From: a virus
Lineage: Duplodnaviria; Heunggongvirae; Uroviricota; Caudoviricetes
IMG/VR virus record: IMGVR_UViG_2541047722_000019
Length of the DNA: 29,355 nucleotides
Reading direction: 5' to 3' (one strand)
The notes beneath the pieces are model-generated. The model saw nothing but the letters and a program-made list of their open reading frames with translations, ran no database searches and was not told the DNA's origin. A program made the translations under genes and the position numbers. Shown here in pieces: positions 1-26,835 of this stretch (its first letter is position 1; every line of letters begins with the position of its first letter).

Positions 1-1917
1 GCCTGCCGGCGACCAGTTAATCAGCAACTTACCAATTCCCACAATGCCGCCGTTAAAGGCTTCCTGAATGTCAGCCCAGCGCTGTTTAAACCAACCACTG
101 ACAGCCCCCCAGTTGCGGTAGATAAGGTAAGCTGCTGTCGCGACAGCGGTGATAACGAGACCGATGGGATTCATCATCAGCGCTCGCCCAATCCAGAGAA
201 CGGCACGTGCAGCGCTCATAAAACCGCGAACGAGGCTGCCCGCCAGAACTTTGCTGAGTTTCAGTCCTCCGCTGGTCAGTCGGCTGAATCCAGTGACAAG
301 CCAGCGTAATTTGCCACCTTCTCCGAGTGCGGTAGTCAGTCGATGCCAGTTGGTCCGGAGTAAAACAGTAGTTTTCCAGACGTTCACAAAGGGGGAAATA
401 AGGAGATTCAGCCCCAGTTTGAGACCAATAGTCGCTATCTTAATCGCAAGGAGCGCACTGATGAGCTTAAAAGCCCCACTGACAAATTGCGGGTGAGTCG
501 CTACCCAGTGTTTTGTCCCCTGAATGAGTGGGAGCAGTTCCTGAGTCAGAGAAATAAAAGATGGAGCTAATTGATCGCCCAGCGTAATTGCCAGATCGCG
601 ACTGCTGACCATAAGTGTTTTAGTGGCTTCAAGGGGAGATTTCAGCCGCTGATCATAAGCACTGGCAAGCAAATCGTTATCCGCAGCCCTGAGAGCACCG
701 GCACGGATCTCTCGATATCTGTCCATGTTGGCCAGCATCGGGCGGATAAATGCCATGACCTGCATATCCGCGAACATATCGCCCAGACCAAAGTTTTTCG
801 CCAGAGCCTGAAGTGCCTCATCTCTTGCCGTATCATTCTTTATTTTCATGGCTGATTTGAAGCCGGCCAGCGCTTCGGGGCTTTTGGCATTGAGGTAACG
901 TTCTATAACACTCAACATCCCTTCAATCGGAGAGATCCCCGCAGCTTTATAACTCGCAATAGATCCCTGCAAATCAATACCCAGATCAGCAAACTGTTTC
1001 TGAGTATCGCGGGCAAAAATTTTGGTAAGAAAGTTTTTAAAATTATTGGCTGCTTCGTCGGTGGAACCTGCACCGATTTTTGCTATCTGGAGACTGGCCC
1101 CGATTTCAGCAACAGCCTCTTTTCCACTGGCAAGACCCGCCATCATTGGGGCCAGGGACTGCATCCACTTGACCTGATCCGGGATTTCAAATGACCCCTG
1201 GTCACCGGCATAAGCCATAATATTCTGAACGGCACCAAAATCTCTGGCCGCACCTTTCAGGGAGTTTTGCCAGACTGCGGCCACTTTTGCCCAGTCCTGA
1301 GCAGACGTGCGTGTTGCCGTTGCCGCGCGGGCAATATCCGGCATCAGAAAACCGATATCTGACACATTATCAATATTGTCGCTGATGAGTGAACCCACCG
1401 CCTCCTGCAGCTCATCCTGATACTGATTGTATTTAAGCGCCCAGCCTTTTATCTGTCCGGCAAGTGCATCCCGCGTTTTATTGTCATATTTTGCGGTGAT
1501 CGACATATCAATCATTTTGTCCTGAAAAGACATGGACTGCTGAACGGCAGGGGAAACCGTATGATAAACAGTCTGTGCCATGCCATACGCTTCAATCCCC
1601 TGACCATACAGCGCCATGCGGTTAGCTTTCAGCGCATCACTGGTAGCGGATGCCGCTGACAGACGGCGCTGCTGGCGCTCAATTTGCTCCATGGTGCGGC
1701 TTACCCGCAGCAGCTCGCTGTTGAGATGCTGCATCCGGGAAGAACCCAGTTGACCATAACGTTCTGTTGCACGGGTTAAAGCGTTCTGACGTTCCTGCAG
1801 GCGGCGTGAGGTATCGCTCAGGGAATCAAGCGCACGGCGGGTACCGCTCATTGCAGAACGGAATGTGCTGCCAATCATCCCGCCGATAACAACGCCGACT
1901 GAAAACTGTCCCGACAT
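1..1917 (-). CDS. Tail tape measure protein, N-terminal 639 codons (3' end beyond window)
   Basis: ATG at 1917-1915 preceded by GGAGG; frame stays open to position 1. N-terminus reads MSGQFSVGVVIGGMIGSTFRSAMSGTRRALDSLSD. Sits directly downstream of the frameshifted chaperone pair, as in Mu and P2. Confidence 0.75.
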   Translation of the reverse strand, partial: MSGQFSVGVVIGGMIGSTFRSAMSGTRRALDSLSDTSRRLQERQNALTRATERYGQLGSSRMQHLNSELLRVSRTMEQIERQQRRLSAASATSDALKANRMALYGQGIEAYGMAQTVYHTVSPAVQQSMSFQDKMIDMSITAKYDNKTRDALAGQIKGWALKYNQYQDELQEAVGSLISDNIDNVSDIGFLMPDIARAATATRTSAQDWAKVAAVWQNSLKGAARDFGAVQNIMAYAGDQGSFEIPDQVKWMQSLAPMMAGLASGKEAVAEIGASLQIAKIGAGSTDEAANNFKNFLTKIFARDTQKQFADLGIDLQGSIASYKAAGISPIEGMLSVIERYLNAKSPEALAGFKSAMKIKNDTARDEALQALAKNFGLGDMFADMQVMAFIRPMLANMDRYREIRAGALRAADNDLLASAYDQRLKSPLEATKTLMVSSRDLAITLGDQLAPSFISLTQELLPLIQGTKHWVATHPQFVSGAFKLISALLAIKIATIGLKLGLNLLISPFVNVWKTTVLLRTNWHRLTTALGEGGKLRWLVTGFSRLTSGGLKLSKVLAGSLVRGFMSAARAVLWIGRALMMNPIGLVITAVATAAYLIYRNWGAVSGWFKQRWADIQEAFNGGIVGIGKLLINWSPAG

Positions 1918-1992
1918 AGTGGTTAACCTCCGGGGAAGGTGAAAAGACGTGAGGGGATAACGCAGAACAGCCGCTACTGGCGGCTGTCTGTA

Positions 1993-2089
1993 CTATGATT
2001 TGTCGCCGTACTCGCTTTTGATTTGCTCTTCAGCCTGCTCCAGCCACATCTCCAGATCGTCAGTATCGAGGGCATCAATCTCCCCCGGC
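1993..2089 (-). CDS. Frameshift extension of the tail assembly chaperone (+1/-2 frame relative to 2075..2410)
   Basis: ORF 1993..2250 overlaps the 3' end of ORF 2075..2410 in the +1 frame. Only its distal part (EIDALDTDDLEMWLEQAEEQIKSEYGDKS) looks protein-like. A GGGGG run (plus CCCCC 2082-2086) lies two codons before the upstream stop. Confidence 0.55.
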
Positions 2090-2410
2090 TGAAACCGGAA
2101 CCATCTCGCCAGCAGCCCCTGCGCCTGCGTCAGCGCCCTGGTTGCTCTCACCCATCCCCGTGATGAGCTGAAATCGTTTCTGTAACTGCAGGTAATCAGC
2201 CAGATCCATATTGTCGAGATCTTCCGGGAGAAGACCAGTACTGCGGGCAATCAGCGGTTCGTCCCAGTCTGCCGGGTTTTTGCTGATTTTGCGCACCTGC
2301 TTCAGGTCTTTTACCGTCAGGCGTTTCAGTTCAACCAGCTCAATTCTGGTGCCTGCAGCAGTGGTGAAGGGATAAGACAATTTAAAAGTATCGGATGGGG
2401 TCTGTGACAT
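2075..2410 (-). CDS. Tail assembly chaperone (lambda G / P2 E analogue)
   Basis: 111-aa ORF immediately upstream of the tape measure gene, with AGGAG 8 nt before the ATG and an overlapping downstream ORF in another frame. This is the conserved chaperone arrangement. Confidence 0.65.
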   Translation of the reverse strand: MSQTPSDTFKLSYPFTTAAGTRIELVELKRLTVKDLKQVRKISKNPADWDEPLIARSTGLLPEDLDNMDLADYLQLQKRFQLITGMGESNQGADAGAGAAGEMVPVSAGGD

Positions 2411-2485
2411 GATTGTGCTCCTGTGTAAGTTCAGGGCAGTATGTCGGGAGAAGCGCGTGACGGATATTAAAGGAGATTAAGAAGA

Positions 2486-2501
2486 AGGGGCCGGAGCCCC
2501 T
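2486..2501 (-). terminator. Short GC hairpin (AGGGGC-CGGA-GCCCCT) after ORF 2508..2789; possible attenuator
   Basis: 6-bp GC stem with 4-nt loop, 7 nt after the stop at 2508, followed on the minus strand by a pyrimidine/T-rich stretch (TCTTCTTAATCTCCTTTAAT). Confidence 0.25.
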
Positions 2502-2507
2502 GTGATG

Positions 2508-2789
2508 TCAGCAAGTGCGAAACCCCTTGCAGTTACGCAGGAAAGCGATGAGAAGCGTCTTTCCCTCAGATTTGCCGATGCCGGAGAACCAGTGGTCGGG
2601 AGGCTCCCATGCTTCAATCAAATCCGCCAGTTTGCGGGCCTTTGAACGTGTGCAGTCAATCGGGTCATTGGTTTTACGGGTATTAAAAAGGGTTTCCACC
2701 CCCGGAATATCAAGGAGGGTAAACCACGTACCATTTGACATGCCCAGTGCCGCACATCGTCCTCCTTTATCCGTCAGTTCAACACTCAC
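2508..2789 (-). CDS. Hypothetical tail-region protein (position of Mu gp41/Y)
   Basis: 93-codon ORF with GTG start 2 nt after the tube gene stop, GGGGG 6 nt upstream. The opposite-strand ORF 2515..2808 translates to low-complexity R/S-rich sequence. Confidence 0.4.
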   Translation of the reverse strand: MSVELTDKGGRCAALGMSNGTWFTLLDIPGVETLFNTRKTNDPIDCTRSKARKLADLIEAWEPPDHWFSGIGKSEGKTLLIAFLRNCKGFRTC

Positions 2790-2791
2790 CG

Positions 2792-3313
2792 TCAGCCCCC
2801 GATATTGATACGGTAGTCAGTCAGTTGATCAACACCGCCGACCCGGAAGATGTTGGCCAGATAGTCCAGTTGCAGCAGCTCTTCACCATCCAGTACCTGT
2901 CTGATATACGTGCAGGTGAAGCTACTGGAGAACTCGGCGTTCTCGTGCTGTTTGAACGTCCCCAGCGGGTTCTTCTTGAACATAATCGTCAGGAAGGTGA
3001 CCAGCGGGATTTCGTCAATCAGCCCCTGCGAGCTGTAGCGCTGGACGCTGGAACGACACTGCAGTGCCAGCGACCTGTACGGGTTCGCGGCAGACAGCAT
3101 CGCATCGCGGTAAAAGCTGTTCCATTTGATTTCGCCTTCCAGCTTGTCAAAACCAGCCGGGAGTTCCACCTTACCCACCATCCCCAGCGCCTTGTGTTCC
3201 TGCATAATCATGGAGACATCGGGGAGTTTGACTTCCTCAGCCCGTCCCAGCAGGTTAGTACCATCCAGATAGATGTTGGCATTCGTGATGCGGTTTATCT
3301 CAATCTTTGACAT
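2792..3313 (-). CDS. Tail tube protein (P2 FII / Mu M family)
   Basis: 173 aa; C-terminal CTYIRQVLDGEELLQLDYLANIFRVGGVDQLTDYRINIGG resembles contractile-tail tube proteins. Start overlaps the sheath stop (TGATG). Confidence 0.8.
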   Translation of the reverse strand: MSKIEINRITNANIYLDGTNLLGRAEEVKLPDVSMIMQEHKALGMVGKVELPAGFDKLEGEIKWNSFYRDAMLSAANPYRSLALQCRSSVQRYSSQGLIDEIPLVTFLTIMFKKNPLGTFKQHENAEFSSSFTCTYIRQVLDGEELLQLDYLANIFRVGGVDQLTDYRINIGG

Positions 3314-4740
3314 CAGTTGCCCCCTTTCAGGGTTAACAGGTATTCCGAGGTGATCTCAGTCTCAAACGTCAGTCGCTCCAGCGGCGGTGGTGGCGTATAT
3401 TTGTAGCTCAGCAACAGGTGCCCGGCGGCCAGCTCCGTCTCCGGATTGCGGGCCGGATCAAACCAGCAACGGAAGCCCAGTACCGCACCATCACCAGTCA
3501 TTTTGCGACCGTAGGCGTTGACCGACTCCGTCAGTGCATCAATCAGCGCCTGAGTAATCGGCATGTCGATGTACTGCTGGCTGAAATAACGAATGGACTC
3601 GTTGATCACATCACCGGTGCGGCGAACGTTCTCAAAGTTACGCATATGGGTGACCGTTGGCCATGCTGCCGTCCGGTTACCCCACAGACGAAGGCCGCTG
3701 CCGTAACTGCTGAATACCGTGGTGATCCCCTGTTCGTTAAGCAGGTTCACCTCACTCTGCGGGTCATCAATCATCGCGGACAGCTGGCGCTCCACGCCGG
3801 TGATCCCCAGAATCTCCTGATTGGAGGATGACCACCAGTAGCCCTTGTCCAGATCGACTCTGGCACGCAGACCTGCTGCACGCTGGCTGAGCGGCTCCAG
3901 ACGCTCTGTGTTTGTCACCGGGTCATATACCTTCACATGCGGATAGCACAGACGGACGCGGTCGGAGCTGGTATTGAAGTTGATGGTGCCTTCCGGGCCA
4001 CGACCTGCCAGAGCCTGTGCAAAGGTGGTACCGACAGGCGCATCAATGTAGGTTACCGCGCCCAGCTTCTCTGCCATGGCGATAAGCTCAACTGCGACAC
4101 TCTTCTGGGTGCAGAACACCGGCGCAATCAGAATTTTGGCGAAATAGCCGTACAGGTTGAAGCTGTCGTTAAGCAGCTTCATGCCGGTTCGGTTTCCGGC
4201 GCTGTTCACCCCGCCGATGATGTCCGCCGCAGTCACCTTCGACGGGTCCGCGTACTCATAGCTCACCTTCACGCTGCCACCGGCCTCAATAGCCTTGCCC
4301 AGGTTCGTGAGCACACCCGCCTGCGCATCAACACGGTAGTCCGTGTTCGCCGTGTGGGTGGTGCTGCCTTCACTGTTTTTCACCACCACATTAGCGACAA
4401 CCGGATGCGCCAGTCTGGCCTGCCCTGTCGATTTGTCAAAGGTAACCACCTCATCCTCGATCGCCGTTTTATGTTTCGCCGGGTCGAGGACGTTAATGAC
4501 CAGAACGGTGCCTGCACCATGGTCATAAATCGCATCCAGCGCCTGCGGAATGGTAAAGCCGGTGAACTGGCTGCCAAATGCCGCTGCGTCTTTCTCAGAC
4601 AGGCACTGTACCAGCGTATTGACATCCCCCATCGGGGCGGTACCAATCAGGCCAATAACGGCAGATTTCACCGTTTTAACCGGGCGGGCACCGTTTTCCA
4701 CCTCAATGGTTTCGGGACCATGCAGATAGTTAGCTGCCAT
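3313..4740 (-). CDS. Tail sheath protein
   Basis: 475 aa, GGAGG 7 nt upstream of ATG, immediately upstream of the tube gene. Sheath-like motifs GYWWSSSN and RLWGNRT. Confidence 0.8.
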   Translation of the reverse strand: MAANYLHGPETIEVENGARPVKTVKSAVIGLIGTAPMGDVNTLVQCLSEKDAAAFGSQFTGFTIPQALDAIYDHGAGTVLVINVLDPAKHKTAIEDEVVTFDKSTGQARLAHPVVANVVVKNSEGSTTHTANTDYRVDAQAGVLTNLGKAIEAGGSVKVSYEYADPSKVTAADIIGGVNSAGNRTGMKLLNDSFNLYGYFAKILIAPVFCTQKSVAVELIAMAEKLGAVTYIDAPVGTTFAQALAGRGPEGTINFNTSSDRVRLCYPHVKVYDPVTNTERLEPLSQRAAGLRARVDLDKGYWWSSSNQEILGITGVERQLSAMIDDPQSEVNLLNEQGITTVFSSYGSGLRLWGNRTAAWPTVTHMRNFENVRRTGDVINESIRYFSQQYIDMPITQALIDALTESVNAYGRKMTGDGAVLGFRCWFDPARNPETELAAGHLLLSYKYTPPPPLERLTFETEITSEYLLTLKGGN

Positions 4741-4981
4741 GGGTGTCCTCCGTTTTCACTTCGCTGTCACTGCTGCTTCTGCGCTTTGGTGACTGCACAG
4801 CCGGTGTGCCGGCGGGTTTAGTCTCTTCAGGTACCGGCGTCAGATGTTTCAGCGCCACCAGTACCTTCACGTAGTCATGCTCCTCCGGCAGGGAAACCGT
4901 CTTCCCCGGCCAGAGCAGGATTTCGGTTCCGTCCGACAGCGTGACGCCGCTGGCCGGGCCGGAATAGCGGTATTCTTTCAT
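4730..4981 (-). CDS. Hypothetical protein (position of Mu gp38)
   Basis: ATG at 4981 overlaps the upstream stop (TGATG). 83 aa, last cistron before the sheath gene. Confidence 0.45.
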   Translation of the reverse strand: MKEYRYSGPASGVTLSDGTEILLWPGKTVSLPEEHDYVKVLVALKHLTPVPEETKPAGTPAVQSPKRRSSSDSEVKTEDTHGS

Positions 4982-5445
4982 CACTCGCTTTCCTCATAGT
5001 TCACTTCGGTTAACAGCGGGCCGGACGGTAAATCGCTGTCTTCGATAAAGACGCTTTCAGTCGCGAAGTCGAGGGCGTACTGCCACAGCCCCCTGACTTC
5101 ACCGATAAACACCTCGCGGGTCAGCCAGATACGGCGGCGGCAGCCGGGCGGGGTGTGGCCACCGAGAATGCGGCGGACAGCATCCAGGACATTAATCGCC
5201 CCTTTTTTACCGTTGAGCTGGCGGAAGACCACCGTGACGCAGAGCTGGATAGTCTGAGACTGGATCACCGCACCGGTATCATCCGGCCTGTCAAAGCGCG
5301 AACCGGCATAGCTCAACAGCAACGCGCCAACCGGATGGTTCAGGCGATATTCAGCCGGTTTCTCCGGGAAGTACTCCACCTGCAGTTGCGGCAGCTTCTC
5401 GCGTAACCGGGCCAGTACCGCATCAAGGACGGGCAGAACGTTCAT
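4981..5445 (-). CDS. Head-tail connector / tail completion protein (Mu gp37-like by position)
   Basis: 154 aa; ATG overlaps upstream stop (TGATG). Assignment is by position between the capsid and sheath genes. Confidence 0.5.
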   Translation of the reverse strand: MNVLPVLDAVLARLREKLPQLQVEYFPEKPAEYRLNHPVGALLLSYAGSRFDRPDDTGAVIQSQTIQLCVTVVFRQLNGKKGAINVLDAVRRILGGHTPPGCRRRIWLTREVFIGEVRGLWQYALDFATESVFIEDSDLPSGPLLTEVNYEESE

Positions 5446-5891
5446 CAGTATTTCTCCAGTAAACCGTCACGACCGCCGAAAGTAGCCGGGCGACTGCGTA
5501 CACGAAACTCGCCAGGCTCAGGCACATCTTTCTGAGTGGACGGCAGCCCCAGCGTGAGCCTGTTATCACGTAACTCCCTGAGTTGCCGCAGCGCTTCTTT
5601 GTGGTCATCCTTCACCGTATCCGGGAGGTCACCTTCCGGGCGGCGGGCGTAGAGCCGGTAACGGACCAGCGTGATGGCAATGTCCCGCAGAACAGTCGGT
5701 ATCTCTGCCAGTGGCAGGATATAGCGTCCGCGCAGATGGGCATCAATCAGCTCGTCGGCATAGCGGATACAGCTGTCCACCACACGGGTATTCACTGTTG
5801 CAGGTGAGTCGAAGTCCATCTCTTCACTGGTGAGCTCGATAAGCGTCCGCTCCGGCACCTGCGCAAGCAAATCCTCCAGGGTGCAGTACAT
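5445..5891 (-). CDS. Head-tail connector protein (Mu gp36-like by position)
   Basis: The track ORF begins with TTG at 6053. The first ATG (5891) lies 1 nt after the upstream stop and gives a 148-aa protein starting MYCTLEDLLAQ. Confidence 0.5.
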   Translation of the reverse strand: MYCTLEDLLAQVPERTLIELTSEEMDFDSPATVNTRVVDSCIRYADELIDAHLRGRYILPLAEIPTVLRDIAITLVRYRLYARRPEGDLPDTVKDDHKEALRQLRELRDNRLTLGLPSTQKDVPEPGEFRVRSRPATFGGRDGLLEKY

Positions 5892-5892
5892 G

Positions 5893-6231
5893 TCACACCC
5901 CGCGCAGGATACGAATGACGTCGCCTTCACCCCCGGCTTCATCAAGTGCAATACCACAGGATTTACCGTCGCCGGACTGCGGCACGGCTCTGGCCTGAGC
6001 ATCTGACTGAACAGCCACACCACGGCTGACAGCGGCCCCGGCCTCGACAGCAATAATGCCCAGAACGCTCACCGGCGTGCTGTCGCCGGTAACAGCATCC
6101 ACTTCGGCAACCCCGAGCGCTGCGGCACCGGCTTTACAGGGGGTATTATCTGCCCCGACAAAACGCTGCTGTGCCAGTGCTGCCCCTGCCGTTACGGTTG
6201 TGATCAGAATGACCTGCTGAGTGGTTCCCAT
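5893..6231 (-). CDS. Small head-associated protein (Ala/Gly/Val-rich)
   Basis: 112 aa; ATG with AGGAGG upstream, directly after the major capsid gene. Confidence 0.55.
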   Translation of the reverse strand: MGTTQQVILITTVTAGAALAQQRFVGADNTPCKAGAAALGVAEVDAVTGDSTPVSVLGIIAVEAGAAVSRGVAVQSDAQARAVPQSGDGKSCGIALDEAGGEGDVIRILRGV

Positions 6232-6240
6232 AACGCCTCC

Positions 6241-7194
6241 TTATTTACTGATACCGGTAATGAGATACCCGGCATCGCCACCAACCACGGCGACTTTGTA
6301 GATATCGGTATAACGGCAGTACTTCACCTTGCCACCGGCTCCGTCGTATTTGTCGGCAACAGGCATCCCCTTACGACGCAGGGTGTAGCCGAAGGACGGC
6401 TCGTTCTCGTCCGCGCTGTCCGCCCCCGGCTGCGGTTTGCCGACATAGTGCAGCATCAGATTGTCTCCCCAGATATCCGCCGGCACGCTGTTCTTATCCA
6501 TTGCCGCTTTCATGGACGGCAGGGAGACTGGGGCACCGATGACGATCTCTTCGATCTGAAAGAGGTCCTGCAGGATTTCTGTGGTGATGCGCTTGCGTTC
6601 GTTGGCTCCGATGGCGGCCTGAATCGCCGGGTGGAACTTCAGCAGCGCCATCACGCCGGCCCCCATGGTCATCAGGTTAGGACGCAGCCCCGTGGCCGTA
6701 CGGACCGCTTCCATACCGGCTTCAATCACCCCGATGGGGTCCCCCTTACCACCGGCCCAGCGATCACTGGCTGTCAGTTTTTTGACGTGCCCGGTACGGT
6801 AGACCTTTTCATCCTGAGCCAGACGGGCAGCGATAAGTTCACGGCGCAGGTTCACGCCATTCGTGGCGCGACGGATGGCCTTGCTCTCTTCGTTAAACAT
6901 GGACTCCGCCTGCTCGCGATAGTCCACCGGCGCAGCCAGATCGTGTTCACCCAGCACCAGGTCCAGCGTGCCTGTTTTTTCACGGACCAGAACATTGCTG
7001 TCCGCCCCGACGGCACGCTCGGTGTCATATTCCACAAAGGCGGTTTTCCCGAAGGTCGGTACACGCACGCCTTCCTTGTCCGTCAGCACGACGGGGAAAA
7101 TACGTTCGCCGATGAATGCGGCATTTTTATAGCCACGGGCGATACTGGTCAGTACCGGATCAACGACACGTTTACCTTTTAAGTAATCAGACAT
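6241..7194 (-). CDS. Major capsid protein (Mu T-like by position)
   Basis: 317 aa, AAGGAG upstream of ATG, immediately downstream of the protease/scaffold gene. Confidence 0.7.
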   Translation of the reverse strand: MSDYLKGKRVVDPVLTSIARGYKNAAFIGERIFPVVLTDKEGVRVPTFGKTAFVEYDTERAVGADSNVLVREKTGTLDLVLGEHDLAAPVDYREQAESMFNEESKAIRRATNGVNLRRELIAARLAQDEKVYRTGHVKKLTASDRWAGGKGDPIGVIEAGMEAVRTATGLRPNLMTMGAGVMALLKFHPAIQAAIGANERKRITTEILQDLFQIEEIVIGAPVSLPSMKAAMDKNSVPADIWGDNLMLHYVGKPQPGADSADENEPSFGYTLRRKGMPVADKYDGAGGKVKYCRYTDIYKVAVVGGDAGYLITGISK

Positions 7195-7208
7195 GCTCTC
7201 TCCTTAAA

Positions 7209-8324
7209 TTACAGGCAGCGTGCGACAGCAGCCTCATAGCTGATGCCTTCTTTTTTGGACAGGGCCACTGCTTTCTGATGCAGGGCCAGACGCTCAGGAT
7301 CGGCTTCCGCAAACTCTGCCACATCCACCTTCACCGTGTCGCCGACACGCTCTTTTGTGGCCTGTTCGGCGAAATTCATCACCGGCTCCCCGTCGGAGAG
7401 CAATGAACGAAAGGCGGTGGCCAGCGGTGTGCGGCTTTCCCCCTCAGCAAACTCCACCGGCTTGTCGCCACCGGCGACGGCATCCAGCAGGGCAACCACC
7501 ACGGAGGAGGCGCGGGGAGCCAGACGGCCCTCTGCGACCAGTTTTTCTGCAAAGGCCACATTGTCCTTATGCAGTTGCTCCTGTCTGACCTGTGCATCAC
7601 GCGCATCGCGATCAGCAGCCTGCTGCTTCAGGCGGCGGTTCTCCTCCTGAAGGGCTTCAATCTCTTCTTTTGTCATCGATGATTCCTCGTTACTTGCGGA
7701 AGACGGCCCCGGGCCTGTCTCACTGAATTGTGCACCTGCTGCATCCTGCGACAGTGTGTCGCGGTACGCCTCTTCGCGCAGACTGTTGAGCTGCCATTCC
7801 GGCAGGACTTTTTCTGCCTCGTCCAGACTGAAGCGGGCGATCAGAAAATCGCGCAGCTTTCCCCACAGGGAGGCATTCGTGATGGCCTGCCAGTCGGCGA
7901 ACTCCACCACACCTTCTTCCTGCTCACTGAAGGACACCTGTTTCAGCCCCTTGACGGAAGGTGGCTGTGCCCCGAGAAAGCCCACATGGCGAAGGTAGAG
8001 CACGCCGGGCTTCGGATTGGACGGTGAATCCGGGAGGTAGAAAGAGGCGGACACTTTTTTGAATCGTCCGTCGGTGACCATCTCAGCAAACTGCGGGTCC
8101 AGCTGGGCAGGCTCTGCCATCAGATCGACGCCGCTGAGCGACAGGGCTTTCACCCAGCCCCACGCCGGGTCTTCCGTTCTGGGATGACCAATCACGAGTG
8201 GTGCTTCATGGACGGACGGGTCATAGGCTTTCACGCAGGCGGCAAGATCGTCTGGCGTGAACGGCAGTTTTTTGCCGTGCATATCGGTATGAGTACCGGC
8301 TTTAAAAATGTGAATGGCTGACAT
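7209..8324 (-). CDS. Head maturation protease / scaffold (Mu I-like); possible internal scaffold start near 7676
   Basis: 371 aa; C-terminal third is charged and coiled-coil-like (EEIEALQEENRRLKQQAADRDARDAQVRQEQL). An in-frame ATG (7676-7674) precedes this part. First cistron after the G-I intergenic region. Confidence 0.6.
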   Translation of the reverse strand: MSAIHIFKAGTHTDMHGKKLPFTPDDLAACVKAYDPSVHEAPLVIGHPRTEDPAWGWVKALSLSGVDLMAEPAQLDPQFAEMVTDGRFKKVSASFYLPDSPSNPKPGVLYLRHVGFLGAQPPSVKGLKQVSFSEQEEGVVEFADWQAITNASLWGKLRDFLIARFSLDEAEKVLPEWQLNSLREEAYRDTLSQDAAGAQFSETGPGPSSASNEESSMTKEEIEALQEENRRLKQQAADRDARDAQVRQEQLHKDNVAFAEKLVAEGRLAPRASSVVVALLDAVAGGDKPVEFAEGESRTPLATAFRSLLSDGEPVMNFAEQATKERVGDTVKVDVAEFAEADPERLALHQKAVALSKKEGISYEAAVARCL

Positions 8325-8460
8325 TTTGCTGTCCCGCGTTATGTTGTCGGAGACAGTTTGTGAGAAATGCAGGCCCGGCGATTTTAATCTGCTTTAGAAA
8401 ACATCAGGGGAGAAGGACAGGGAAAGCAATGCGGTGAACCGGAGGCGGTTATAAAACAGA
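8325..8460 (-). promoter_or_regulatory. Candidate late promoter region for the I-to-tail operon (Mu P_I analogue)
   Basis: Non-coding stretch inside the late cluster, upstream of the I-like gene and downstream of a terminator-like hairpin. Contains TAAAAT and a TGTCTCCGACA palindrome 18-28 nt before the ATG. Promoter elements are not verified. Confidence 0.35.
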
Positions 8461-8492
8461 GGCTGTAAAGCCTTTATAAAGGTAATACAGCC
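8461..8492 (-). terminator. Dyad-symmetry hairpin with T-tract after the G-like gene
   Basis: GGCTGTA ... TACAGCC arms enclosing the palindrome CTTTATAAAG, followed on the minus strand by TCTGTTTTAT. Lies 47 nt after the stop at 8539. Confidence 0.45.
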
Positions 8493-8538
8493 CCTCATTC
8501 GCTGGCAATGATAAATCACCCGCCTGAAGAGAGAAAAC

Positions 8539-8997
8539 TCAGCGACGGGCCGCTGATTCAAGATGGCGGACAATGGTATCGAGGATGGGGATTACCACTT
8601 CAGGCTGTAGTTCTCCATCCCCCGTCACCGGCAGGAACGGGCGGGCCGGAAGTTCAACAGACTCATTACGCCCCGTTTTACCCCCGAACTGGTGAATGGC
8701 ACCGTAAACAACGTTGGTCCCCACAACAGCCTGCCGGTCGTCATGGTCGGTTGATACTGACCCCATCAGACGCCCGGTATCCTGCAGTGTCTGCCCGTCA
8801 CGTTCTTCCGCTGCCAGCGAGGGCATCCACCCCGGACGCCCCTCATCAAGAAAGTTAAACTGTGTTTCCGCCAGCAGGGTTCCGGCGATTTTGCGCATCG
8901 CGGGCTCCAGGTCTGTGGCAGCAAGATCCAGCGCACGGAGGCTCCGGCGCAGGGACTTATCGTTAATGGTGATACTGACCAGGTTATCGGAAGCCAT
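8539..8997 (-). CDS. Virion morphogenesis protein (Mu G-like by position)
   Basis: 152 aa, GAGAGGA upstream of ATG, between the F-like gene and the intergenic terminator. Confidence 0.6.
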   Translation of the reverse strand: MASDNLVSITINDKSLRRSLRALDLAATDLEPAMRKIAGTLLAETQFNFLDEGRPGWMPSLAAEERDGQTLQDTGRLMGSVSTDHDDRQAVVGTNVVYGAIHQFGGKTGRNESVELPARPFLPVTGDGELQPEVVIPILDTIVRHLESAARR

Positions 8998-8999
8998 TG

Positions 9000-9821
9000 T
9001 TATCCTCTCAGTTCCTGTTGTGCCAGTGGCTGAAGCGTACCCTGATAGCGGGCCAGGTCGGGACGGTATGCTGCCCCCGGTGCATAAGACCAGCCGACGT
9101 CGGTGGTCACCTTCGTGGTGCCGGTATTAAAGGTGGCCACGTTCCGCATTTCGCCGGTTTTCTCTGAGACCAGTTTCAGTTCCTGGCCCATGGCAGAGCC
9201 GGAGCTGATAACCTTCAGGCCACGGGCACGGACATCCGCCGCACTCAGGGCAATCACACTACAGCGGCAGCGCCAGCCGTTCGGCGGGTAAAATGCCTGC
9301 CAGAACGGGTCATCCCAGCGCAGCACCAGACCATGCAGCGCCAGATGGCTCCTGCGGGTATGGCTGTCGTTGATGCCGGTATACATCCAGTACGGCCTGT
9401 CGTCGACGTTTTCCATCTGCTCCGCCCAACGACCGGCGCTGTAGAGTACGGACATATTGGTGCGAAAGATGGTGTCGAGCCGCCACGGGCTGCCCTGCTG
9501 AATGGTGACCGGCTCACCCGTTACCGGGTCAGTCGTGTCACGTGGTCCCCACCATCCCTTACGCTTCAGCACCGGCTCCAGCTCCTGCCGGAACCAGCGA
9601 TCGGTTTTTCCTTCATCGACAGCCTGCTGCAGTGCCCCGCGAATATCTTCCAGAATATCCAGGCGGGTCACTTTAGCGACGGTAAAGGCGCGGGCATGGG
9701 CTTCCTGCCACATTTCTTCCCAGTCCCAGGTAATCTGATACCCTTTGGACTTCAGGTAACTGACTGCCCGCTTCGGGGGAAGCGTCATGCAGTACGCCAG
9801 TTCAGCCGTTGTCACGCTCAT
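9000..9821 (-). CDS. Head morphogenesis protein (Mu F family)
   Basis: Contains the NGWRCRCSV (N-x-x-R-C-R-C) motif typical of Mu F-like proteins. The track start is TTG at 9848; ATG 9821 with GGGGG upstream is preferred; ATG 9788 is an alternative. Confidence 0.7.
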   Translation of the reverse strand: MSVTTAELAYCMTLPPKRAVSYLKSKGYQITWDWEEMWQEAHARAFTVAKVTRLDILEDIRGALQQAVDEGKTDRWFRQELEPVLKRKGWWGPRDTTDPVTGEPVTIQQGSPWRLDTIFRTNMSVLYSAGRWAEQMENVDDRPYWMYTGINDSHTRRSHLALHGLVLRWDDPFWQAFYPPNGWRCRCSVIALSAADVRARGLKVISSGSAMGQELKLVSEKTGEMRNVATFNTGTTKVTTDVGWSYAPGAAYRPDLARYQGTLQPLAQQELRG

Positions 9822-11298
9822 GCAGACGCCCCCAGATATTTGCCACAAAGAGAATGCGGGCCAGCCGTTCCTGCAGATCGTCCGTGTTCATCTGAGGGTA
9901 GAGCTCCGCCAGTTCGCCCAGCAGCTCAGACGGGTTAACCCCGTTTTCGACCCGCTTAAACAGAGGTGCCAGGACGGGTTCCAGCGTGCCATTTAACACA
10001 CCTCCGTTCATCAGAATGTCCAGCGCGTCGTCAAGCTGCTGCTGAGCCTGAATATCGGCATCAATCGCCTCGGCAAATGACAGCGGCAGCATGTTATTCT
10101 GGCGTTCCGACGGTGGTGTCTCGTCAATATCGCCGTCCTGCAGCTGGTACTCACGCTTAAAGTATTGCGGGGTCAGACGCAGACCCGCCCGGGTGAGTTT
10201 TTCGTCGCGGGTGGCGCGGGTGTCATCAATGGTCTCCTGTTCCCACATGGCCCAGACCGGACACGGCACATCGCCGAAGTTCAGGGTGACCACCGTTCTG
10301 ATAACCTGATTCACTGCTGCCTGAATGATGTCCGCATCCGCATCGCGGATATCAGCCGTTACCTCCAGCCCGGCCTGTGCAGAGGCCTTGTTACTGTTCG
10401 CTTCCGTGGTCTGATTCTGACCAAGTAATGCAATGGAGATCTCACTGCGTGACAGTGTGATCAGCTCGCGGAATACCTCGCTGCTGTCCGCCTTACCATC
10501 CGCGGCTTTGAGTTCGATGCTGCTGTCATCGGGGATGGCGGCCACCGCGTCCTCCACCATCTGCTCCATGGAGTCCAGCAGTTTTTCAATCTCTGCATCA
10601 TTTGCACCCCTCGGGTGCTTACCGATCACCCACGGGGAGCCAAACTTTTCGGCAAAGCGGAGCCAGAATTTCATCCCGCCTTTCTTGAAGGCGACCGGCC
10701 AGAAGCACATGGACAGGTCCGGGAAACCGTAAGGATTGTCATACGAGGCATCCTGTGCCGGCACCACGAATTTTGACGGTGACAGCAGCTCACCCTCCAC
10801 ACCCGCATCACGCGCCCGGAAGCGCAGGCAGTTGTCCGTATCAAACTGAAACCACTCAGGCGGTTTGCCGACAATATCCGTCACTGCCCACGCCCTGACC
10901 GAACGGCCCCACATGATTTCACAGGGCTGATACCCGTAGAGCACGGCATCACTCATCTCACCGATGATGCGGGACAGATCCAGATCGTCGAGCATGTCGC
11001 GGATGAAACGGAAGACCCGGGCAGAAGCGTGACCGCGCTCCAGTCCACGCTCCAGTGATTTGAGCGCTGCTTTACGTCTGCGGATACAGCCCCCGACCAG
11101 CGGGTCGGTGCGCAGTTCGCGGTAGATACGGATATCCCGTCCCTGAGCCTTGAGAATGGGATCAGGATTGGGCAGATACATGCCCAGTCCGTAAAAGTCG
11201 ATCGCGCGGCTGCGGGAGGCAATCTGCGCGGTCAGTGATTTCTGAGGCTCAGAAAAAGCAACAAATTCATCGGGTGAAACCCAGATACCCCTCGCCAT
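9802..11298 (-). CDS. Portal protein (Mu gp29-like)
   Basis: 498 aa between large terminase and the F-like gene; ATG overlaps the terminase stop (TGATG). Confidence 0.7.
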   Translation of the reverse strand: MARGIWVSPDEFVAFSEPQKSLTAQIASRSRAIDFYGLGMYLPNPDPILKAQGRDIRIYRELRTDPLVGGCIRRRKAALKSLERGLERGHASARVFRFIRDMLDDLDLSRIIGEMSDAVLYGYQPCEIMWGRSVRAWAVTDIVGKPPEWFQFDTDNCLRFRARDAGVEGELLSPSKFVVPAQDASYDNPYGFPDLSMCFWPVAFKKGGMKFWLRFAEKFGSPWVIGKHPRGANDAEIEKLLDSMEQMVEDAVAAIPDDSSIELKAADGKADSSEVFRELITLSRSEISIALLGQNQTTEANSNKASAQAGLEVTADIRDADADIIQAAVNQVIRTVVTLNFGDVPCPVWAMWEQETIDDTRATRDEKLTRAGLRLTPQYFKREYQLQDGDIDETPPSERQNNMLPLSFAEAIDADIQAQQQLDDALDILMNGGVLNGTLEPVLAPLFKRVENGVNPSELLGELAELYPQMNTDDLQERLARILFVANIWGRLHERDNG

Positions 11299-15376: not shown

Positions 15377-15727
15377 TTAAAGCCCCATCGCAACAGCCAG
15401 ACAGACCGCTGCAACAATCAGTGCACGGCGGATTAACGCAGCAGAAAACACCAGGTGAAGGCCGGTCTGTACCGGGAAACGCCCATCAGCCATCAGCCTG
15501 TCGTCATGTTTCAGGTACTGACCGGGACGGGCTTTGGGGAAGAGCGAACGGTCAAGCCAGTAACCCAGCACTGCTGCCAGCGTGATGAGTGCCAGCTTGT
15601 AGATCACAACAGGCAACTGCTGTGGCGAGACCAGAGCGATGGTGCCCAGCAACAGCACTGAGGTCAGCAGCCAGCCGCTGAGGCGAGGTTTTTTAACAGG
15701 GGGAATGAATTTTTTCAGGTTTTTCAT
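15377..15727 (-). CDS. Holin-like membrane protein (first late cistron)
   Basis: Three predicted hydrophobic helices. ATG 15727 has GGAG 6 nt upstream; the track ORF extends to GTG 15760. Sits directly upstream of the endolysin gene. Confidence 0.45.
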   Translation of the reverse strand: MKNLKKFIPPVKKPRLSGWLLTSVLLLGTIALVSPQQLPVVIYKLALITLAAVLGYWLDRSLFPKARPGQYLKHDDRLMADGRFPVQTGLHLVFSAALIRRALIVAAVCLAVAMGL

Positions 15728-15857
15728 GTGTGTCTCCTTGTCTGGTGGAGACAGCATCACAAATACAGGGCGCGAAGGATTTTAAAGCGCGTTAAGAGAG
15801 CCGGGGATACGGGATGTGCAGGATAAACGATGAATTATTCACAGAGGAGAATACGAT
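15728..15857. promoter_or_regulatory. Divergent promoter region (late operon leftward, cargo operon rightward) with RBS-overlapping inverted repeat
   Basis: 130-bp gap between divergent starts 15727 (-) and 15858 (+). Perfect inverted repeat TGTCTCC(9)GGAGACA at 15731-15753, whose one arm is the GGAG ribosome-binding site of the late gene. Confidence 0.4.
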
Positions 15858-25945: not shown

Positions 25946-26387
25946 ACAACGTCTTATCCAGCTCATTCATATTGCCCGTAATGAACTGGGTATGGATGAA
26001 GACACCTACCGCCAGATGTTACAGGGGCTGACCGGTAAAGCCTCAACCAAAGGAATGGATACCACACAACTAAACTGCGTGCTGGAATCCATGAAAAGGA
26101 AAGGCTTTCGCGTTAAGCCTGCCGGAAAAGCCAGCTCCGGTTTACCGCTGGATAACCATCCGCAGTCCAGGAAAATCCGTGCGCTATGGCTTGAAATGGC
26201 TGCTGCCGGCATTGTTCGTGACCGTTCAGAAAATGCATTAGCGCGGTGGATCAAGCGGGAAACGGGCATCAGCGCCCTGCGCTGGCTCAGTACTGAACAG
26301 GCAAGCAGTGTTATTGAGAAACTGAAGAAGTGGCAGCGCAGAGCTGCGGGAGTCAAACATGAGCGACCTGAATCAGTTTCGAAGTAA
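25934..26387 (+). CDS. GemA-like early protein
   Basis: ATG with AAGGAG upstream; immediately upstream of the Mor-like gene, as gemA is in Mu. Confidence 0.55.
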
Positions 26388-26757
26388 AGGGCCGGAACTC
26401 CTGGTGGAGCTGGCACAGCATACCTCTGAGACCGTTCGCGAGATTATTGATATTGAGCCCGCAATTGCCGACCAGATTGGTCAGGCCGTCGCGAACCGAA
26501 TGATGCAGGTCTGGGGCGGGCAAAACGTTTATTTCCCGATGGGCATGGTATGGAAGGTCAGTCAGCGCGACCGGGAAATCTTCAGGGAGTTTAACGGACG
26601 CAACCACCACGAACTGGCCCGCAAGTTTGGTGTTTCGCTTCAGTGGGTCTACAGCGTGGTTAAGCGGGTCAGAAAAGAAGAACTGGATCGGATGCAGGGC
26701 AGGTTGTTTGATGAAGATCTGCCAGAGGAGACGAAAGACGTTAACAAATCCAGATAA
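26359..26757 (+). CDS. mor: Mor/C-family transcriptional activator
   Basis: 132 aa; GGQNVYFP and FNGRNHHELARKFGVSLQWVYSVVKRVR match the Mor/C C-terminal DNA-binding region. Last early cistron. Confidence 0.8.
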   Translation: MSDLNQFRSKGPELLVELAQHTSETVREIIDIEPAIADQIGQAVANRMMQVWGGQNVYFPMGMVWKVSQRDREIFREFNGRNHHELARKFGVSLQWVYSVVKRVRKEELDRMQGRLFDEDLPEETKDVNKSR

Positions 26758-26801
26758 TTCCTGCTTGTTAAAGTCCTTTCAAAAATCTCCTTATTGTATA
26801 A

Positions 26802-26835
26802 AAGCACGGTAGACCCCTTACCGTGCTTTTTTTAT
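26802..26835 (+). terminator. Rho-independent terminator ending the early operon
   Basis: Perfect 10-bp stem AAGCACGGTA / TACCGTGCTT, 7-nt loop, followed by TTTTTTTAT. Confidence 0.65.

Follow-up and report, generated by a model that had tools for sequence, protein, structure and literature searches.

The window analysed here, which is the whole stretch of 29,355 nucleotides, is a BcepMu-like transposable prophage, with a 1.5-kb stretch (1900..3400) that shows 99.8% identity to Escherichia phage PhiKM and has a match in 641 of 5,426 complete E. coli genomes. Around the locus considered in this work all genes lie on the minus strand, where the sheath gene (4740..3313) is followed by a tail tube gene annotated as a member of the P2 FII family (2792..3313; PF04985, 2.9e-53) and then by a 93-aa accessory ORF (ORF93, 2508..2789) of the Sf6 gene 22/HK75 gp27 family (phrog_1239). 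ORF93 is the last gene before a 97-nt intergenic gap that holds the hairpin studied here, and on the other side of the gap we find the gpE-like tail assembly chaperone gene (2075..2410, with a Shine-Dalgarno AGGAG at 2422..2418), its E′ frameshift extension, which reaches to 1993, and the tape measure gene, which starts at 1917. The protease/scaffold gene, on the same strand, starts at 8324.

The gap contains a 16-nt perfect palindrome, AGGGGCCGGAGCCCCT, at 2486..2501. An earlier note on this DNA had described a short GC stem-loop followed by a T-rich stretch at this place, a description borne out in its exact coordinates and in the T-tail of the coding strand; the element is, moreover, conserved among relatives. 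Read on the minus strand, the palindrome gives the candidate intrinsic terminator stem-loop AGGGGC-UCCG-GCCCCU, with a perfect stem of 6 bp, five of them G-C, and a 4-nt loop, directly followed by the T-rich tail UCUUCUUAAU (2476..2485). As in intrinsic terminators, the stem is GC-rich, has at least 5 bp, encloses a loop of 3-8 nt and lies on the transcribed strand, and the element is located past a stop codon, in sense orientation and in non-coding DNA: 6 nt separate it from the ORF93 stop on one side, and 75 nt lie between its 3′ end and the chaperone ATG (2410) on the other. A consensus scan of the first 10 kb ranked it first among 15 terminator-like sites. Its folding energy is -12.8 kcal/mol (z = -2.44, with 2 of 200 shuffles equally stable), and the hairpin is retained in both the MFE and the centroid structures of its 131-nt context. 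On the plus strand no T-run follows the palindrome (GTGATGTCAG), so the hairpin is directional. If counting starts at the last G-C pair, the tail is UUCUUCUU, which has six U in eight positions and two C interruptions; relatives show UUUCUUCUU, the tail in most of them reading UUUCUUCUUAAU from the same pair. Such a tail passes a loose scan (5 T in 8) and fails a threshold of 6 T in 9 when counting begins at the A-U pair. The short 6-bp stem and the two C in the U-tract suggest that termination would be partial. A scan of the whole window at the Rfam gathering thresholds matched no family.

In the single sequence, the hairpin exceeds chance only weakly. A loose criterion (perfect 6-bp stem, at least 5 G-C pairs and at least 5 T among the 9 bases that follow) gave 4 counts in the window, corresponding to 3 distinct places with two overlapping registers at one of them, against 1.04 ± 1.14 in dinucleotide shuffles, and a strict version (at least 6 T in 9) found no match in the window. 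With about one chance element expected per window, the case for the hairpin rests on its intergenic position and on its conservation in relatives.

The comparison comprised 92 related loci (80 IMG/VR contigs, 7 other Enterobacterales genomes, 3 phage records and 2 E. coli chromosomes). ORF93 together with the same hairpin occurs in 83 of them, where the stem is invariant but for one C-to-U change (L089) that keeps a G-U pair, and the loop takes the forms UCCG, UUCG, UGCG and UUAG. Seven of the nine loci without ORF93 have unrelated GC hairpins abutting the same T-run, with replacements such as GGGGGCC-GCAA-GGCUCCC, GGGGCC-UGGU-GGCCCC and GGGAGC-CUUACC-GCUCCC, and at one of the seven a different small ORF is followed by the hairpin AGGAGGGA...UCCCUCCU. 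The other two (L091 and L098) have no hairpin, their tube and chaperone genes being separated only by the promoter region described below, which makes the hairpin dispensable. At the equivalent position, Burkholderia phage vB_E274 carries a textbook terminator, GGCCCGC-UUCG-GCGGGCC followed by U6, and hairpins are also found directly after the tube gene in ECO95 1-6-1, in Pseudomonas phage Komp_PAO1_1 and in P2. The hairpins of P2 and of the Pseudomonas relative are strong, with poor or no U-tracts, and in ECO95 1-6-1 and P2 the ribosome-binding site of the chaperone gene comes directly past the hairpin, with no recognisable TTAA dyad motif of the kind found in the window.

The junction hairpins compared among these relatives fold with energies between -11.8 and -24.1 kcal/mol, that of the window being among the weakest, and with z values from -2.8 to -4.9, as opposed to +0.3 for a junction lacking the hairpin. 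Altogether, a stable hairpin has been kept at this position in eight independent sequence families whose stems differ, and it is always oriented to the T-run as a sense-strand terminator would be. Paired stem positions amount to 53 of 56, compared with 31.8 ± 4.1 when arms are swapped between families, a descriptive figure for hand-picked hairpins that were anchored by hand, as MAFFT misaligned the different families. An invariant stem with a varying loop and eight unrelated hairpins at one place correspond to the evolutionary maintenance of structure seen in intrinsic terminators. The orthologous hairpin in a prophage of Pantoea stewartii ATCC 8199 (L009 3291..4604) is interrupted by an IS element of ~1.29 kb that contains a transposase ORF of 319 aa and is bounded by the terminal inverted repeats TGAGGGATCCCCACAAA; its 12-bp target duplication, GGGCTTCGGCCC, is the hairpin core.

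Other stem-loops were observed in the window. A second conserved hairpin on the minus strand, CAGCCGC-CAGUA-GCGGCUG followed by UUCUGCGUU, lies at 1968..1986, in the 75 nt that separate the E′ stop (1993) from the tape measure start (1917), so that the chaperone gene is bracketed by two hairpins. Its stem is conserved in relatives and its loop is free to vary, and two loci (L070 and L084) have another stem, GCAGCC...GGCUGC, at this position. A palindrome, CCTTTATAAAGG, is located at 8471..8482 (minus strand), some 75-110 nt upstream of the promoter-like motif of the protease gene; two terminator-like hairpins (8556..8539 and 8473..8460) are found around it, and its core, TTTATAAAG, is conserved in phages of E. 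coli, Burkholderia and Pseudomonas (L239 ~5035-5055; L240 ~4980-5000).

Directly 3′ of the hairpin at the tube/chaperone junction lies a promoter-like motif (2480..2437, minus strand) that opens with a conserved TTAA-N6-TTAA dyad (2467..2480), a putative activator site of the Mor/C family, and closes with a -10-like hexamer, CATACT (2438..2443), exactly 23 nt past the dyad. The first TTAA overlaps the 3′ part of the T-rich tail of the hairpin. Two blocks, TTAATCYCCTTTAATATC and GACATACTGC, are nearly invariant in relatives and flank an 18-nt stretch (2461..2444) that varies in sequence and is constant in length. The motif recurs at 8354..8397, upstream of the protease/scaffold gene, and at 15752..15795, upstream of the holin and lysis genes, both on the minus strand, and the three sites share the pattern YTAA-N6-TTAAWATCS-N18-hexamer-G with identical spacing, their hexamers being CATACT, CAAACT and GATGCT. 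No TTGACA-like element was found 17 bp upstream of any of these hexamers, and a scan of positions 1..10000 for the full sigma-70 consensus reported none of the three sites. Relatives conserve the holin and protease sites in the same manner, that is, in blocks and spacer length and not in spacer sequence. The flanks of these two copies are pyrimidine-rich and have no adjacent hairpin.

The three sites match the pattern with 0 mismatches by construction, and no extra match with up to 2 mismatches was found in the window (0.01 expected); as the pattern was written from the same three sites, it is circular, and the independent test is a weight matrix. Such a matrix, built from 37 distinct orthologous chaperone-upstream sites only and scanned over both strands of the window, gave rank 2 to the site before the holin gene and rank 4 to the one before the protease gene among ~58,600 positions. 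In all 92 close relatives the junction is followed by this motif common to other operon-start regions. A comparable arrangement appears in Komp_PAO1_1, whose tube is 52% identical, in which three intergenic regions contain exact copies of the 21-bp sequence TCTTTAAACCCGATTAAAAGCC, one ahead of the protease gene, one ahead of the chaperone gene and one ahead of a baseplate gene; the last copy (L239 17430) lies between the baseplate V-like and W-like genes. Since the equivalent baseplate region falls outside the window, there may be another late promoter past the left end of the window.

The window contains a single recognised gene of the Mor/C family of transcription activators (26359..26757, plus strand; PF08765, 1.1e-43; phrog_532 'late transcriptional activator', 2.3e-45), whose product is a candidate activator of the three putative promoters. 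Some 45 nt past its stop there is a long stem-loop, AAAAGCACGG...CCGUGCUUUU (26800..26830, plus strand), that looks like an early/middle operon terminator and could be bidirectional. The promoters recognised by this family in phage Mu offer a geometry to compare: its late promoters possess a -10 hexamer but lack a -35 hexamer, the activators C and Mor recognise an imperfect dyad of 16 bp with its centre at -43.5, and a proximal UP subsite of Pm is formed by positions -57 to -52 (PMC2582627, PMC4390567). If the start site of the prophage motif is assumed at A2431 or A2430, as predicted from a +1 placed 7 or 8 nt past the hexamer, its dyad is centred at -42.5 or -43.5, the T-run covers approximately -55 to -51 and the hairpin approximately -71 to -56. 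With a -10 element lacking a -35, an encoded activator of the right family and an element repeated before late units, the TTAA-dyad motif is most likely a Mor/C-type, activator-dependent late promoter. As the other two copies have pyrimidine-rich flanks and no hairpin beside them, the T-run may be conserved for the sake of the promoter rather than of the terminator. A less likely alternative takes TAAAAT/TAATAT, inside the conserved block, as the -10, which would produce a long leader with a stem covering the Shine-Dalgarno; the second conserved block would then lose its role in the promoter and the match to the -43.5 geometry would disappear.

A further feature was seen at all three putative promoters, where the bases past the -10-like hexamer are complementary to the Shine-Dalgarno region of each gene (minus strand, approximately 2417..2440, 8328..8350 and 15726..15748; pairs CUGCCCUG/CAGGAGCA, CUGUCUCCG/CGCGGGACAG and GUCUCC/GGAGAC). 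At one of the two hairpin-less loci (L091) the complement to the Shine-Dalgarno forms a perfect 11-bp repeat that overlaps the hexamer, and it is present in the Burkholderia relative as well. The assumed start site would leave the left arm of this Shine-Dalgarno repeat partly untranscribed, and the inverted repeat between hexamer and Shine-Dalgarno is outside what a model of terminator plus promoter explains.

Regarding the gene that precedes the hairpin, the ORF93 family is found elsewhere in the lambdoid early-left accessory region (Sf6 gene 22, HK75 gp27) and in ~95-kb plasmid-like phages. The searches for its function gave a weak DUF7739 match below the Pfam cut-off and nothing in NCBIfam or PADLOC, and phrog_1239 has no known function. 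In relatives, the junction carries ORF93, a 66-aa ORF (L096), ~250 nt of other sequence (Komp_PAO1_1) or nothing, and the type of hairpin changes together with this cargo. The term moron (Hendrix/Juhala) reportedly designates an extra gene inserted between genes that are adjacent in related phages and provided with its own promoter and terminator. ORF93 resembles morons in separating a tube and a chaperone gene which in some relatives are neighbours (9 of the 92 loci lack it), in being followed by a terminator-like hairpin and in having homologues in widely differing phage contexts. It differs from them in that no promoter of its own is apparent, its GTG start codon lying 2 nt past the tube stop and a consensus scan of the minus strand near 2790-3000 giving no promoter-like site, and in that its base composition is not unusual, with no foreign island around it. 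The idea that the hairpin forms part of an ORF93 moron cassette was rejected, as homologues in six other phage contexts (Sf6, HK75, EPP-1, an Enterobacter phage, a Citrobacter phage and a plasmid-like phage) are not followed by a hairpin; in lambdoid and plasmid-like phages the next gene comes directly after. Homologues without a hairpin, together with cargo-less relatives that do have one, indicate that the hairpin belongs to the tube/chaperone junction and not to ORF93.

Altogether, we consider it reasonably probable that the hairpin is an intrinsic terminator that ends a late unit 2, placed back to back with the activator-dependent promoter of a late unit 3. The transcript of unit 2 would start upstream of the protease/scaffold gene and run through the capsid, sheath and tube genes and ORF93, until formation of the RNA hairpin GGGGC-UCCG-GCCCC followed by UUCUUCUU allowed the polymerase to release some of the transcripts roughly 8 nt beyond the stem, in a factor-independent termination of probably partial efficiency. 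Unit 3, comprising the chaperone, the tape measure and further tail genes, would be transcribed mainly from its own promoter, which would begin within the T-run of the terminator and consist of TTAA-N6-TTAA near -43 and CATACT, with no -35. Such a terminator-promoter pair could behave as an insulator that keeps the output of the very abundant sheath and tube independent of that of the low-copy tail proteins, the terminator shielding the downstream promoter from read-through. The earlier note had correctly put the hairpin between the tube-side ORF and the chaperone/tape measure genes. Its placing inside the second late operon is not supported, given the conserved promoter-like motif found directly 3′ (2480..2437), with the same spacing as those before the holin and the protease/scaffold genes, and the hairpin is more likely the end of late unit 2 than an element internal to an operon. 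The suggestion that it limits passage from sheath and tube into the downstream tail genes fits its recurrence in P2-type tail modules. A drop in RNA-seq coverage, which had been advanced as a check, would be a confounded test, because the putative promoter some 55 nt downstream could mask it.

The position of the hairpin within the transcription map is what separates this reading from one of an internal attenuator, in which one long transcript would extend from the protease/scaffold gene to all the tail genes, with no promoter downstream of a leaky hairpin that would lower the expression of chaperone and tape measure. The structural and conservation evidence applies equally here, and ECO95 1-6-1 and P2 show what a purely internal hairpin without a TTAA dyad looks like; nevertheless, in the window and in the 92 close relatives the hairpin is followed by the motif of two other operon starts, which is conserved in the way of promoters and has a cognate activator family encoded in the same prophage, so that we deem the attenuator rather unlikely. 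We would also assign a low probability to a 3′-end stabiliser or processing barrier, which would guard the sheath/tube/ORF93 mRNA from 3′-to-5′ exonucleases after cleavage or read-through and would increase the steady-state abundance of upstream over downstream genes. The imperfect U-tract, the strong hairpins with at best a poor U-tract in P2 and in the Pseudomonas relative, and the second conserved hairpin after the chaperone, with its weak T-tail (1986..1968), point in that direction, since stem-loops of this sort suggest a general use for RNA stability in the tail module. On the other hand, a T-run consistently adjoins the hairpins in the BcepMu-like lineage and the terminator of the Burkholderia relative has the canonical U6, although the roles of stabiliser and terminator are not exclusive.

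An absence of any function at the RNA level appears very unlikely, whether the palindrome is regarded as a DNA-level recombination boundary of the cargo slot, as a target of mobile elements or as a chance occurrence carried along by the conserved promoter beside it. In favour of this view, chance alone would yield about one such element per window, the nearly invariant stem of the ORF93 group offers no compensatory changes, the IS of Pantoea stewartii lies in the hairpin, its 12-bp target duplication matching the hairpin itself, and cargo and hairpin type switch together. These points have to be set against the eight independent families that keep a hairpin, with the descriptive excess of 53 of 56 paired positions over 31.8 ± 4.1, folding well beyond shuffles and an orientation to the T-run that is always that of a sense terminator.

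A more speculative extension of the terminator-promoter arrangement, which we hold to be quite unlikely, is that the BcepMu-like tube/chaperone junction serves as an inbuilt slot for cargo, with an overlapping terminator-promoter module at its end. The DNA of the U-tract would double as upstream flank and half-site of the Mor/C-type activator site, and an activator bound 4-9 bp beyond the stem could affect termination, for instance as a roadblock or through DNA bending. If that were true, genes in the slot, ORF93 among them, would obtain late expression at the level of sheath and tube with the dosage of the tail genes undisturbed.

The hairpin is by itself an ordinary, routine regulatory element that leaves current understanding unchanged. 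Combined with the three-copy TTAA-N6-TTAA motif, it provides a testable transcription map of a BcepMu-like E. coli prophage, with three putative activator-dependent late units and a likely terminator-promoter junction between tube and chaperone, and marks this junction as a site carrying different accessory genes, which can be of use for annotating and engineering such prophages. Our search of the literature on BcepMu, KS10, P2-like genomes and late promoters and terminators found nothing on the tube/chaperone junction.

A close parallel in position is the FII-E stem-loop of P2, which also comes after an FII-family tube gene and before a gpE-type chaperone gene with an E′ frameshift; the P2 hairpin (CCGGUCAGC-CUG-GCUGACCGG) differs from that of the window in having no U-tract and no activator-type promoter after it. 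Leaky terminators are known to tune the structural operons of phages such as T7 and the Pseudomonas phage LUZ7 (PMC9163698). Like the element of the window, they consist of a GC stem-loop and a U-rich tail on the sense strand after a stop codon, and they divide highly expressed structural genes from low-copy ones (PMC9163698); the hairpin described here is unlike them in its stem of only 6 bp, in its U-tract interrupted by two C and in a T-run shared with the upstream half of the promoter.

As for the promoters, the Mor/C paradigm of Mu would be extended to a group with P2-type tails. Both phages would have several late units with a -10, no -35, a dyad near -43.5 and an activator of the Mor/C family, and both have one copy before the lysis genes and another before the protease/scaffold (gene I-like) gene. 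The half-sites of the prophage are TTAA-N6-TTAA, and the likeness to Mu is one of geometry. A difference concerns the tail side, where the putative promoter of the prophage precedes the chaperone gene, whereas PP of Mu is placed after the tape measure gene.
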